64,000 nucleotides of DNA from a virus (Duplodnaviria > Caudoviricetes): positions 1-64,000 of the IMG/VR virus record IMGVR_UViG_3300032335_001059. One strand, 5' to 3'. A program made the translations under genes and the position numbers. Positions 46,478-51,068 of this stretch are shown piece after piece; the first letter of the stretch is position 1, and each line of letters opens with the position of its first letter. The notes under the pieces were generated by a model. That model was not told the origin of the DNA, made no database searches, and was given only the letters and a program-made list of their open reading frames with translations.

Positions 46478-47742
46478 TAATTTTTAAAAACACAAGACGT
46501 TTTAATAATTCACTTCCTGAAGTAGAAATAGATATAAGAAGTTTAAACATTATTCCTTTATTTGATATAATTGATGCTCCTTTTGGATTAATCAAATATG
46601 ATTCAAATCCTATACTTTCTAAAAATAAAACTGCTAGTAGAATTTTACATAATAAAAATCTAATTTATAGATATTCTTATTCAGGTCAATTATTACATTA
46701 TGATTATGAATATTTAAAATCAAAGTATATAGATTTTAAAAAAAGAATAAAAAATGAAGTTTATTTCTTTTTTAATGAAAAAGTAAATTTTATTACTACT
46801 ATCAATAATACTAATATTCAATTTAATGAAAAAGTATTTATTAATACTGAATATATAACAAATAATTTTCAATTTAGAGGTAATAACCAATTTATAAAAA
46901 ATACTTTTGATAAATTTTCAACAAAAAAAGTAATTAGAAATAATGAAAAATTAGCTATTTATTTTGGTTCTGTTTTTAAAGAAGTCGATGAAGGTATATA
47001 TCCTGTTTTACTATCAGGTATTGATGCAAATAAAATAAATTCTTTTAAATCAAATTTAATAAATACTTTAGTAAATGAACCTACTGATTTTAATTCAGTT
47101 AAAGTTTATATAGACAAAGATTGGTATTTAGATTCATGCAATAAATCTTTAAAAATATATTTGTTAAAAAATTTAGAAGAAAAATATTATAATTACGAAC
47201 TTATATTGTTTGACGGTAAAGAATTTGCTAATCAAAATATGTTTTCTTATCAACCTTTATCTTTTTCTACTCTTAGTAAGAGAAAAAAGTATTTTAATGA
47301 TATTGAAGCTAAACTTTATGAATTAATGCTAGATGATTATAAAGATAGTTTTGACTATAAAGCTGAACAAGAAAAGTTTTTAAATAAATACAATCAATTA
47401 TTAGAAAATAATAGAAAAGAAAAACAAGATAAAGAAGAAAATAAATCTGAAATATTAGAAACTAGAAGTTTAACTTCAGAAGAAATGTCTTTAATTGATT
47501 CGTTATTTTATAATAATGTAGAAGAGGAAATTGTTCCACGTGTAATTTCTACAGACATAATGAATGAAGCTATTGGTAATAGTATAGAATATCAAGAAGT
47601 ACCTGTACTTAATTTAATTCCAGTTTTACAAGAATTAAGTCCTACAAGTCAACTTCTTTCTACAATATCAGAAATAGATAATACATTTGCAGATTTAGAA
47701 GAAGAATTACGTAGAATAGCTAATGAAATACAAAATGGATAA
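46474..47742 (+). CDS. Hypothetical protein coupled to the E1 gene
   Basis: 422 aa, ATGA overlap with E1 stop, acidic C-terminus. Confidence 0.65.
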   Translation: MIIFKNTRRFNNSLPEVEIDIRSLNIIPLFDIIDAPFGLIKYDSNPILSKNKTASRILHNKNLIYRYSYSGQLLHYDYEYLKSKYIDFKKRIKNEVYFFFNEKVNFITTINNTNIQFNEKVFINTEYITNNFQFRGNNQFIKNTFDKFSTKKVIRNNEKLAIYFGSVFKEVDEGIYPVLLSGIDANKINSFKSNLINTLVNEPTDFNSVKVYIDKDWYLDSCNKSLKIYLLKNLEEKYYNYELILFDGKEFANQNMFSYQPLSFSTLSKRKKYFNDIEAKLYELMLDDYKDSFDYKAEQEKFLNKYNQLLENNRKEKQDKEENKSEILETRSLTSEEMSLIDSLFYNNVEEEIVPRVISTDIMNEAIGNSIEYQEVPVLNLIPVLQELSPTSQLLSTISEIDNTFADLEEELRRIANEIQNG

Positions 47743-48352
47743 AAATTTTAAACACATATATACTTTAGAAATTCCTAAGTATATAACATCAGTACAAACT
47801 TCTAAATCAATTAGACCTAAATATTATTCTAATATTGCTGGAATAGGTAGAGTTAATAAATGTCCTAAGAAATTAGAAGGTGCTCAAGTAGACAGTAAAG
47901 GTTTTTATCTTGACAAAGATGGTAACAAAATTGTAGCTAATACAAGAAGTGTAGGTAAAGCTAGGCAAGTTCCTATTAATGCTCAAATACTTTATGTAGG
48001 TAGTACATGGAATAGAGTTGCTATTAAAAATGGATTAGAAGAATTTTTTATAGATTACATTAAAGATATGCCAGTTTTTACTGGTAGTATTGCAATGGAA
48101 TGTGAAATTCATACTATAATAGGACATTCTCAAGCAGATTTGGACAATTTAGGTTATATGTATGGTAAAGTATTGACTGACACTATGGTAAACATGGGAA
48201 GATTAGTTGATGACAAAGTACCTTATGTAACTAAACCTTGTTCAGCTCCTTTATTTTATCCTGTTGATTCATTTGATGATAGAAAATTAGTTTATCATTT
48301 TTATCAAGATAAAAGACCTGAAATATTAAAATTAAATAAAGTAGAAGATTAA
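47723..48352 (+). CDS. RusA-like Holliday junction resolvase
   Basis: ADLDNLGYMYGKVLTDTMVNMGRLVDD matches the RusA D-x-D-N...K...D...DD pattern. Confidence 0.7.
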   Translation: MKYKMDKNFKHIYTLEIPKYITSVQTSKSIRPKYYSNIAGIGRVNKCPKKLEGAQVDSKGFYLDKDGNKIVANTRSVGKARQVPINAQILYVGSTWNRVAIKNGLEEFFIDYIKDMPVFTGSIAMECEIHTIIGHSQADLDNLGYMYGKVLTDTMVNMGRLVDDKVPYVTKPCSAPLFYPVDSFDDRKLVYHFYQDKRPEILKLNKVED

Positions 48353-48371
48353 TTTCTTCTACTTTATTTTT
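48338..48371 (+). terminator. Intrinsic terminator
   Basis: aaagtagaaga-ttaatt-tcttctacttt plus T run. Confidence 0.65.
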
Positions 48372-48393
48372 AAAATTAAAAAATTAAATTAAT

Positions 48394-48639
48394 ATGAAAA
48401 AAATAATTATCACTATTCTAGTAGCTATTATAATGCTACCTTCGTGTAAAAAAGAATGTAACTTTCCACCTGCTCCATACGGAACAGCAGACAATGTAAG
48501 CGAGTATAGCTCTACTGGGTACAACTCAATTACCTACACCTACTACTGCTATAGCGGTAGGTACACAGCCGTAACCTATACCAATACGGAAGGTTGTGTT
48601 TGGGAAGATAGTTACTATTATTCTAATTGTATAAAATAA
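48394..48639 (+). CDS. Small Cys-rich lipoprotein
   Basis: MKKIIITILVAIIMLPS-C signal peptide II / lipobox-like; stop lies in attC-like R''. Confidence 0.7.
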   Translation: MKKIIITILVAIIMLPSCKKECNFPPAPYGTADNVSEYSSTGYNSITYTYYCYSGRYTAVTYTNTEGCVWEDSYYYSNCIK

Positions 48640-48762
48640 CTTTTCCGAGTATTGCCGCAGTAGCAGAATTACAAAACATCAAAGTAAAAACAAATGGAAA
48701 ATAAAGAACAAAAAGTTGAAACAGGCACAGAAGCTGCTATTGTCGACAATATTGTGTTGCCT
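48634..48762 (+). other. attC-like imperfect palindrome 1
   Basis: R''-like AAATAAC containing the upstream stop; arms agtattg..gcagtagcag / ctgctattgt..caatatt; R'-like GTTGCCT. Confidence 0.5.
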
Positions 48763-48945
48763 GCCGTTTTTTCGCAGGATTATTTAGAGTGGGTAAAGCA
48801 AGCCAATTTGCCTCCACTAACAAATACACAGCATAAATTTGCGGAGTGGTTACTACAAGAAGATAATAGAAAAGTTATTTCTCAAATTGGCGGATTTGAT
48901 GAAATATTTATTTCTGTTCGTAAGTGGGTCAAAAATTTCAGCTAA
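48694..48945 (+). CDS. Cassette-like hypothetical protein (starts inside the attC-like loop)
   Basis: 83 aa; stop in R'' of the next site. Confidence 0.6.
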   Translation: MENKEQKVETGTEAAIVDNIVLPAVFSQDYLEWVKQANLPPLTNTQHKFAEWLLQEDNRKVISQIGGFDEIFISVRKWVKNFS

Positions 48946-49023
48946 CGTTTTCGGGCTTGGCGAAGTGGCTTTTGTGCGTTGGCTTGTGTGTCGGAAAGCC
49001 ATTTTGCCAAACCCGTGTTATAT
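48940..49023 (+). other. attC-like imperfect palindrome 2 (84 nt)
   Basis: AGCTAAC ... cggg.ttggc.gaa.gtggcttt / aaagccat.ttt.gccaa.cccg ... GTTATAT. Confidence 0.65.
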
Positions 49024-49093
49024 GAAGTGCCGACTTATTTACGATAAAGCCCAATTGAAACAATAAACAGAAAAACAAAAAGAAAAAAAAGCG

Positions 49094-49237
49094 ATGGAAG
49101 AATATAAAAAAATACCTTATAAAAAGGTTTCAAATTTTGGAAAAAGATTGAGAGATAAATCCAAAATAGAAGACCGTGAGTTTATAAAAAAACAACAAAT
49201 ATCTTTAATTAAAGCAAAAAAAATAATAGTAAAATGA
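49094..49237 (+). CDS. Small basic protein, 47 aa (not in track)
   Basis: MEEYKKIPYKK...KIIVK*; ATGA overlap with 49234. Confidence 0.45.
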   Translation: MEEYKKIPYKKVSNFGKRLRDKSKIEDREFIKKQQISLIKAKKIIVK

Positions 49238-49566
49238 ATACAGGAAATATGTCAAATGACGAGGCAGAATCAATAGGTAAATTTATTGAACAACTTAACA
49301 ATATACAGCCATTTTGCAAAGCAAGTGTTACTCGCAGTAATTTATCCAAAGGGATGTGTGTACAGGATAGTGAAGGCAAAAAAGGTGTTATTAGAAATTG
49401 TGAGGACTTGCACAATGTTCACGTAACTTTTGAAGGCGAAGGAATTGAAATAGATTGGTACGAAATACCTTTTGAGTGCGGTGGAAGTGGGCTGTATTGC
49501 TTCGTTGAAGATTGTCAAGGTAATTGTGAAAACGAAAAATTTATAAATAAGTTTTTTGTAATATAA
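49234..49566 (+). CDS. Cys-rich hypothetical protein (cassette cargo)
   Basis: 110 aa; higher GC than neighbours. Confidence 0.6.
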   Translation: MNTGNMSNDEAESIGKFIEQLNNIQPFCKASVTRSNLSKGMCVQDSEGKKGVIRNCEDLHNVHVTFEGEGIEIDWYEIPFECGGSGLYCFVEDCQGNCENEKFINKFFVI

Positions 49567-49719
49567 CAATATAAAGATAGTATTCATAAATGTGCGGTGG
49601 CTTTTTTCTTTTTGTTTTTCCTTCACGGAACTTCAATTGGAAACGGTCAGCAAGGCATTTCATATAACGTGCTAATACCCGATACTAATACACGCATATA
49701 CAACAAAATAAAAAATAAA

Positions 49720-49968
49720 ATGGATTTAACTAACTACGAATTTAGGATTTACAATGGCAGAATTAAGGTCTGCTACAAAGGGGCTGTGATGTTTACCTTC
49801 AACCAAATAGACTTCTTGAGCTACTACTTTTTTAAAGATGATACTCAGCTGTATGGCATGACCCTACACTTCCTCAGAGAAAAGGCAGGAGGACATGAGA
49901 TGGATGTCTATTTTAAAGATAAAGAAACTTGGCTAGCAGTTAATAAATTGTTAGACGAGAATATGTAA
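49720..49968 (+). CDS. Hypothetical protein (start likely 49720)
   Basis: 82 aa; the track's GTG extension is the translated inverted repeat. Confidence 0.6.
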   Translation: MDLTNYEFRIYNGRIKVCYKGAVMFTFNQIDFLSYYFFKDDTQLYGMTLHFLREKAGGHEMDVYFKDKETWLAVNKLLDENM

Positions 49969-49987
49969 AACAAATAAACATACGAAA

Positions 49988-50230
49988 ATGGAAAAAGAAT
50001 CAAATAAAATGACTGCGGTTGAATGGGTATTACAATATTTGAATAATGTAAAACCAAATGAATTTTGTTCAATAGAAAAAATAAAAGAACTTTTGGAACA
50101 AGCCAAAGAAATGGAGAAGGAGCAAATGTTTAATTCGTTTATGGCATTTGAATCTAATACTGAAGAAAACGAAAAGTTATTTGATGAATACTACAAAGAA
50201 ACATACGGAGGTAACAATGAGCAACAATAA
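49988..50230 (+). CDS. TAVEW...QAKEMEKEQ family small protein
   Basis: Paralogue of the next gene; ends YYKETYGGNNEQQ. Confidence 0.65.
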   Translation: MEKESNKMTAVEWVLQYLNNVKPNEFCSIEKIKELLEQAKEMEKEQMFNSFMAFESNTEENEKLFDEYYKETYGGNNEQQ

Positions 50231-50468
50231 ACAACAGACGGCAGTTCAGTGGTTTATTGAGCAACTTGAACAGAAGGGAGATGCTTGGGAAAAAGTAAGC
50301 ATTAGACAAATAAAAATATCAGTTGATGTTAGCGATTATCTTGACCTAAAAAGACAAGCCAAAGAAATGGAGAAAGAGCAGATTATGGATGCACATTATG
50401 CACCAAAATACGGATGTTTTAATAAAGATTACTACAACGAAACATACGGAGGTAACAATGGGAAATAA
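50217..50468 (+). CDS. TAVQW...QAKEMEKEQ family small protein (start likely 50217)
   Basis: Ends YYNETYGGNNGK. Confidence 0.65.
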   Translation: MSNNKQQTAVQWFIEQLEQKGDAWEKVSIRQIKISVDVSDYLDLKRQAKEMEKEQIMDAHYAPKYGCFNKDYYNETYGGNNGK

Positions 50469-50589: not shown

Positions 50590-50768
50590 TTAAACCAGAA
50601 CCAACAATAGTAACAATATCACATTATGGTAGAAAATTTACAGCAGAATTACCATGTGATTCATCAATAGGAGAAGTTTGCGATGCCTTAAAAGGCTTAT
50701 TAAAAGCAGCAGGGTATGCAGATGAAACAGTTAACGAACATATTAAAGGTGAACATGACGATTTATGA
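50586..50768 (+). CDS. Small hypothetical protein
   Basis: 60 aa. Confidence 0.6.
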   Translation: MIKPEPTIVTISHYGRKFTAELPCDSSIGEVCDALKGLLKAAGYADETVNEHIKGEHDDL

Positions 50769-50825
50769 CAATAGGTATAAAGAAATTCACAAATACTACA
50801 ACAAAACATACGGAGGTAACACATA

Positions 50826-51068
50826 ATGACAAAAGTAATAATAATAGGGGAACAGCCCGAAAAAAAAGAATTAAAACCGATTGAGTTTGTGAAACGTTTA
50901 AATTATCATTTAGAATTTAGTTCAGGTTGCTCATCTCCAACAGTACGGGAGAACATTGAATTAATTTGTAAAAATTATGCTGCTAAATTTGATTTAATGT
51001 TCGCATTTGATGAAGATAGGAATAATGGCGTTTTATATCTTGGACACTTTAATGATGGTGTAGTATGA
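50826..51068 (+). CDS. Hypothetical protein
   Basis: 80 aa. Confidence 0.6.
   Translation: MTKVIIIGEQPEKKELKPIEFVKRLNYHLEFSSGCSSPTVRENIELICKNYAAKFDLMFAFDEDRNNGVLYLGHFNDGVV

Follow-up and report, generated by a model that had tools for sequence, protein, structure and literature searches.

The window, the stretch of DNA that we analysed, is the initial 64 kb of an IMG/VR phage record (Table 1). The thymidylate synthase gene of this phage shares 85% nucleotide identity with that of Flavobacterium phages, and a Bacteroidota host is therefore likely. Just 3' of a RusA-like gene, within a long series of small plus-strand genes, lies a variable block that contains ORF1 to ORF4 and two hairpin sites. 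It is preceded by a terminator hairpin that is kept in 4/4 close relatives (L001 to L004, found via the RusA-like protein) and that marks the left edge of the conserved backbone. The first-pass annotation had described the local GC of the block as differing from the genome; the shift exists (0.341 versus 0.279), but it is only modest, at the 96th percentile among segments of equal size.

Table 1. Features of the phage record and of the cassette block, in window coordinates.
Feature	Position	Strand	Description
IMG/VR phage record	86,813 bp		GC 27.9%; CheckV 99% complete
RusA-like gene	47723-48352		weak PHROG matches
Terminator hairpin	48334-48369	+	perfect 15-bp hairpin and T-run, just 3' of the RusA-like gene
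Variable block	48390-49704	+	missing from the closest relative, L001
ORF1	48394-48639	+	81 aa; lipoprotein-type signal peptide; stop codon in first TAAC box
Site 1	48634-48762	+	degenerate, long class; AAATAAC, arms and loop, GTTGCCT; 129 nt
ORF2	48694-48945	+	83 aa; starts in site 1 loop, stops in AGCTAAC
Site 2	48940-49023	+	strong, short class; AGCTAAC to GTTATAT; 84 nt
Conserved cassette 5' end	49017-49091	+	R' box, A-rich leader, ATG; 92% identical to G013 89905-90012
ORF3	49094-49237	+	47 aa, basic; first gene of the inverted-repeat-ended cassette
ORF4	49234-49566	+	110 aa; Cys-rich, mosaic
Half-site remnant in ORF4	49307-49330	+	right arm and GTTA; 83% identity to 48997-49020
Conserved cassette 3' end	49587-49668	+	~80 nt, ending ATATAAC; near-identical in ~35 IMG/VR and 5 MAG contigs
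Non-hairpin stretch	49669-49704	+	last box to A-rich leader junction with the backbone gene at 49720

The proteins of the block matched no family in PHROGs or Pfam, and no relatives of ORF2 were found in viral contigs. ORF1 is Tyr/Cys rich with a hydrophobic stretch followed by a cysteine, is common to L002 only, and may be a surface or exclusion protein. Just 3' of the block are three tandem small ORFs (49988-50230, 50214-50468, and 50716-50826) that overlap by a few bases; together with L002 8729-8983, they have internal and C-terminal motifs in common, including a YGG-containing tail, and form a paralogous family. On the minus strand of G000, two adjacent very large ORFs (2058 and 3560 aa) occupy 56208-73071.

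ORF1 and ORF2 both end inside TAAC boxes. The first-pass annotation had placed the TAA of ORF1 within AAATAAC (48634-48640) and that of ORF2 within AGCTAAC (48940-48946), each followed by an imperfect palindrome that closes at GTTGCCT (48756-48762) and GTTATAT (49017-49023), respectively, with one ORF starting inside an attC-like loop. All of these assignments proved true when checked against the sequence, the start codon in the loop being the ORF2 ATG at 48694. The third box, ATATAAC (49662-49668), had been described as lacking its right arm, and it indeed has no hairpin 3' of it, the best duplex there amounting to -6.9 kcal/mol. The complementarity proposed for the two ends of the last segment is likewise present: positions 49017-49031 and 49654-49668 are complementary over 15 nt at 93% (14/15), and the pairing extends into imperfect inverted repeats of about 75 nt.

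Site 2 consists of AGCTAAC, a 5-nt spacer, 21-nt arms that are 86% complementary, a 1-nt spacer, and GTTATAT, and near-identical copies of it occur in L022, L046, and G013. Its top strand folds as DNA at -16.8 kcal/mol (z = -3.6), and its bottom strand, for which folding had been proposed as a check, folds at -14.3 kcal/mol (z = -3.2). Site 1 does not adopt the family fold alone (z = +0.6) and is best termed degenerate. Its loop contains the family loop motif in addition to the ORF2 ATG. At 84 and 129 nt, with stems of 18 to 21 bp, an unpaired spacer, and a variable loop, both sites have the dimensions of an attC palindrome (57 to 141 nt). AAC or GTT cores are present in every box of the window; against the attC consensus RYYYAAC/GTTRRRY, the flanking positions are off by 1 to 2 bases in each. 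The box consensus of the family to which these sites belong is nnnTAAC-G...T-GTTAnnn.

We determined whether the palindromes could be more ordinary structures. An Rfam scan of the whole window returned no family match. A terminator and promoter scan found nothing at the sites, and its promoter-like matches were as many as in shuffled sequence; the promoter model is of the sigma-70 type, and Bacteroidota promoters are outside its coverage. No T-run lies 3' of the site stems. The two alternatives that the first-pass annotation had itself put forward, ordinary terminators and REP-like repeats, were thus both checked: neither site received a terminator call, and self-BLAST of the block against the genome gave no dispersed repeat family. 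A dif-like Xer site was also considered, as the box region resembles XerC arms, and was ruled out by the lack of a second arm.

To compare the sites with those of other phages, we used a covariance model, R1, built solely from the array sites of another phage, G013; a duplex-based site finder misses site 1. R1 matched site 2 with 58.4 bits (E = 5e-9) and site 1 with 23.7 bits (E = 0.03), both over the full length and on the plus strand. These top two matches in 128 kb are precisely the two spans marked in the first-pass annotation, the next having E values of 0.3 or worse, and the search found no further site in the remainder of the 86.8-kb genome.

The G013 record (169,658 bp) contains a far longer array. 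Using a simple finder, we counted 37 sites on its plus strand and 2 on its minus strand between 86.2 and 114.9 kb, with one site per 0.3 to 1 kb. Many proteins of 250 to 290 aa are encoded among the at least 37 hairpin sites of G013 86,224-116,572 (L080/L081), and the 3 G013 proteins that were scanned all proved to be adenine DNA methyltransferases. When 36 G013 sites are aligned, the sole invariant parts are the TAACG and TGTT cores. Nevertheless, a structure of 22 pairs is kept, with 90.5% of cells paired versus 66% in shuffles and 38 to 47% with the partner slid. Two-sided (compensatory) changes occupy 163 cells versus 59 in shuffles, and 0/500 shuffles reached 163. The family sites are thus conserved in structure and variable in sequence. 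Across 40 loci that carry the conserved element described below, R1 gave 93 matches, which lie on a single strand in each locus.

Neighbouring sites are related to one another by their boxes. In 74/87 neighbouring site pairs (85%), the triplet that follows GTTA in one site is exactly complementary to the triplet that precedes TAAC in the next, compared with 8% of random pairs and 10% within one site. Each cassette is therefore bounded by 7-nt inverted repeats, the pattern that insertion of circular cassettes at specific sites yields in integrons. This chain complementarity bears on the idea that the hairpins work only at the RNA level, as terminators or as RNase III or stability hairpins, with no DNA rearrangement and with box matches that arose by chance. 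At several near-invariant positions, the coding strand has a G-T wobble (for one pair, 29/32 sequences have G-U), so the top strand or its mRNA folds better, as in the two values for site 2, and the 5' and 3' ends of a cassette could pair within one mRNA. Even so, we regard this explanation as extremely improbable: no T-run follows the stems, and it leaves the chain complementarity, the homology breakpoints at the boxes, and the recombinase link (both described below) unexplained. A role in RNA may well coexist with one in DNA.

Read with these boundaries, the window would hold ORF1 ending in a TAAC box, cassette 1 (site 1 and ORF2), cassette 2, and then an orphan TAAC box. Cassette 2 would comprise site 2 and a unit with inverted-repeat ends, made up of a 5' leader, ORF3, ORF4, and an 80-nt 3' end. 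The ends of cassette 2 match at 7/7 positions and those of cassette 1 at 5/7. The array closes with this orphan box, which has no hairpin 3' of it. ORF4 is a mosaic whose residues 1 to 24 are common to L008 and residues 31 to 101 to L005-L007, and the half-site remnant in this gene falls precisely on the joint.

Cassette 2 has counterparts in many other contigs. Its conserved 5' end is an imperfect reverse complement of its conserved 3' end, and positions 49587-49669 match an otherwise unrelated contig at 95% identity. A 20-mer of the 3' element occurs in 35 IMG/VR stretches, of which 34 are copies of the element and 1 is a chance match in unrelated coding sequence. Among 185,579 bacterial and archaeal species genomes, the 20-mer was found in 5 short MAG contigs, all with a phage-type layout, and in 1 further chance match; the 80-nt element had no match among GenBank phages. 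In the copies listed, the stop codon of the preceding gene is close by, in most cases immediately 5' of the element (in the window, about 20 nt separate the two), and the element ends at a TAAC box in all but L040. A hairpin follows in about two-thirds of the copies, with arms that differ between contigs yet stay complementary and that end 1 to 2 nt before a GTT, mostly GTTA. A matching 5' end lies 480 to 1230 nt upstream in 27/27 assessable copies, while the cargo in between differs, consisting of DNA methyltransferases in G013 and of ORF3 and ORF4 in the window. By this comparison, therefore, the copies make up one type of cassette, in which the inverted ends are universal and the cargo varies. 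The methyltransferases scanned in G013 are the cargo of its two such cassettes and the gene just before its recombinase.

The two conserved ends pair in three blocks (15, 9, and about 20 nt) that are split by unrelated stretches. Binding sites for an accessory protein and pairing of the 5' and 3' ends in mRNA are both possibilities for why these blocks are nearly invariant across dozens of phages. Copies of the element are often found no more than a few hundred bases from the end of a contig, probably because assembly stops where co-occurring phages have the element in common and differ beside it. Where a TAAC box has no hairpin (L002 7432-7470, 7952-7990, and 8537-8580; L017; L031), the next bases are often alike, starting with AATT.GC or TCAT, and such junctions may be a second kind of junction or array-end sequence. 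We rejected two other identities for the element. A host sequence such as a tRNA or a CRISPR leader does not fit its presence in only the 5 phage-like MAG contigs among the 185,579 species genomes. A protein-coding role was not adopted either, since the minus-strand frame of 25 codons is shifted by 1-nt differences in T-run length between copies.

The position of start codons and arms gives an indication of polarity. Among the long sites of G013 (at least 100 nt), 11/14 contain the start codon of the downstream gene, compared with 3/23 of the short sites. One arm type occurs upstream of the conserved-end cassette in 15/27 copies but in only about 4/24 hairpins downstream of it and in 9/37 G013 sites. 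Both observations suggest that the hairpin usually travels with the gene 3' of it, the reverse of the integron arrangement. One hairpin type in G013 sits between different triplets on both sides, so the crossover may lie on either side.

We next consider the enzyme. The whole genome contains no family match to a tyrosine recombinase, a serine recombinase (resolvase), or a Y1 transposase and no homologue of the G013 enzyme. The earlier statement that the window has no integrase is thus correct and extends to the entire 99%-complete genome, and the accompanying suggestion that the phage may encode its recombinase beyond the window is refuted here. Tyrosine recombinases were found in 0/8 near-complete records that carry the element or are closely related and in 1/40 viral records, G013. 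There, the last site of the array is followed by one methyltransferase gene and then by the recombinase, a protein of 289 aa whose best match is an Xer-type model (206 bits). Against the integron-integrase model TIGR02249, it scores 155 bits in two stretches, where the cut-off is 265. L088 encodes a homologue with 76% identity and has 7 sites directly upstream of it, and two further homologues both lie at contig ends. In other phages, then, the arrays are long, confined to a single strand, and end beside the gene for an Xer-like tyrosine recombinase.

These data bear on whether the window holds a classical CALIN, in which true attC sites would have been taken over from a bacterial integron and would serve as substrates of a host IntI. 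Clusters of attC sites without an integrase have been reported in virulent phages, including the Polaribacter phage P12002L (Qi et al. 2023; PMC9892861), and the boxes of the window do have AAC/GTT cores and a size within the attC range. R1 also matches P12002L beside its methyltransferase genes, and one of these matches is P12002L_attC1; of the six sites assayed with IntI1, this alone was not recombined (PMC9892861). A site of the present family is thus the one that the integron enzyme failed to use. Additionally, the array-linked recombinase is Xer-like and falls under the integron-integrase cut-off, matching in two pieces; the 20-mer is found in just 5 contigs of the species genomes, all of phage type; and start codons lie inside the sites. 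Given these results, we consider a captured integron cluster very unlikely.

To examine how the locus varies, we compared the close relatives. L001 is without the whole of 48390-49704, and its flanks are 96 to 99% identical to those of the window. Because both junctions fall in the A-rich leader repeat, with 7 to 12 nt of microhomology and not at a G|TT point or site core, gain or loss of the block relative to L001 reads as a short-homology event on the whole block rather than a site-specific one. L003 and L004 have unrelated genes at the locus and no sites. L002 has ORF1 at 92% nucleotide identity, and the homology stops exactly after TAAC (48640). Past this point, it has different cassettes with two strong sites, and two of its cassettes have GTTA and three bases at the start with the exact complement and TAAC at the end (7/7 twice). 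The cassette-wise differences for which the first-pass annotation had proposed to look are therefore seen in L002, which diverges at the box, but not in L001, which differs at A-rich leaders.

The L001 junctions are what would be expected if the hairpins were PeSL-like regulatory modules (promoter, terminator, or leader) that are shuffled by homologous or short-homology recombination in co-infection, with no dedicated enzyme. The loops of the long sites, like that of site 1, hold the downstream start codon; the 75- to 80-nt ends, near-identical across unrelated phages, offer ample homology; and the near-complete records are without a tyrosine recombinase. PeSLs of T4-type phages do exactly this, forming mini-circles (PMC2839356). 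However, homologous exchange does not predict the triplet matching of neighbours, arms that vary freely with pairing kept, or arrays that end at a tyrosine recombinase gene, and neither a sigma-70-type promoter nor a terminator was called at the sites. We therefore think that PeSL-like shuffling is unlikely to account for the array.

Taken together, these sequence comparisons make it probable that 48390-49704 is a short, recombinase-less array of a hairpin-bounded gene-cassette system of Bacteroidota phages. An integron-like reading is supported in that a model from G013 alone matches exactly the two sites of the window, that a recombinase adjoins the arrays in G013 and L088, that the window and L002 diverge exactly after TAAC, and that the two parts of ORF4, which differ in source, meet at a GTTA half-site. 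It is weakened by the lack of a recombinase in the genome and of a tyrosine recombinase in the eight near-complete records, the weakness of site 1, the 5/7 match of cassette 1, the off-core junction in L001, and the G013 hairpin type that sits between different triplets. The proposal of the first-pass annotation, an attC-like cassette system, holds in that structure-defined sites bound the cassettes and relatives differ at the boxes. It does not hold as a classical integron, because the enzyme differs and the polarity looks reversed.

In such a system, cassettes would move as units via site-specific recombination. As in integrons, the hairpin would be folded or extruded, and the crossover would fall within its invariant TAAC/GTTA core or next to it. 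Each hairpin would mostly travel with the downstream gene, whose start codon it includes in long sites. In the present phage, such recombination may have brought in the cassettes, either in an ancestor or in the course of a co-infection. Since the genome has no recombinase, the array would now be a fossil or would be moved only by an enzyme given in trans by the host or a co-infecting phage. Additionally, relatives appear to exchange the block as a whole through recombination between short homologies in the A-rich leaders.

More tentatively, we propose that Bacteroidota phages share a pool of self-contained cassettes, each with its own hairpin, leader, and start codon and one type with universal 75- to 80-nt inverted ends, which an Xer-like recombinase acting in trans moves between unrelated phages in co-infection; we give this idea slightly less than an even chance. 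If it is true, recombinase-less lytic phages join an integron-like gene market that has reversed polarity and an enzyme unlike that of bacterial integrons. Integrons are regarded as a bacterial device run by IntI. A parallel system in phages, with long arrays, a different tyrosine recombinase, and cassettes that bring their own expression signals, would mean that the structure-specific capture of cassettes arose or spread beyond what has been assumed. It would also provide the "hyperplastic" accessory regions of lytic phages with a concrete mechanism. The window adds that a few such cassettes can reside in a complete lytic phage that encodes no enzyme for them, which prompts the question of what moves them. 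The near-invariant 80-nt ends offer a handle for locating such cassettes in metagenomes and for bench work.

The system shares several properties with integrons and CALINs. It is structure and not sequence that defines a site: the AAC...GTT core is invariant, the unpaired spacer is asymmetric, the loop varies, and the length is 55 to 130 nt. Arrays lie on one strand, most cassettes contain one or two genes, the two ends of a cassette complement each other as they should in units that circularise, and full arrays have a tyrosine recombinase gene at one end. In contrast to integrons, the recombinase of the phage arrays is short and Xer-like, without a full-length IntI match, and it is encoded downstream of the array in the same direction. 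An integron site lies 3' of its own promoterless gene, whereas ORF2 starts inside site 1 and the phage hairpin seems to travel with the downstream gene, whose start codon it holds in long sites. The phage elements are also almost confined to phage contigs, and the present phage has no recombinase. Compared with the arrays of G013, L088, and P12002L, the sites of the window match the same independent covariance model, but the adjacent Xer-like recombinase is absent here.

Xer-type enzymes act on other mobile units. In the pdif modules of Acinetobacter plasmids, an Xer-type tyrosine recombinase is associated with small gene modules bounded by short inverted sites, and the hairpin attP of CTX phage is a folded single-stranded site used by an Xer-type recombinase. 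Unlike Xer/dif modules, the phage sites have no 11-6-11 dif-like arrangement and are hairpins of 55 to 130 nt.

The clusters of Qi et al. (PMC9892861) resemble the present array in being recombinase-less and in lytic phages. However, those clusters were read as components of bacterial integrons, and long arrays, an Xer-like recombinase, and a conserved-end cassette were not described there. Our literature search likewise found no description of these three features. The PeSLs of T4-type phages (PMC2839356, PMC4122927) are also similar: modules made of a hairpin and expression signals separate the small accessory genes of hyperplastic regions, whole modules distinguish one relative from another, and circles have been proposed or seen as intermediates. 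PeSLs differ in being conserved in sequence, in containing sigma-70 promoters, and in moving by homologous recombination, whereas in the phage arrays compensatory changes accompany the variation of the arms, the ends are complementary from one site to the next, and the arrays have a dedicated recombinase linked to them. By this comparison, PeSLs are the nearest functional analogue that acts by homologous recombination.
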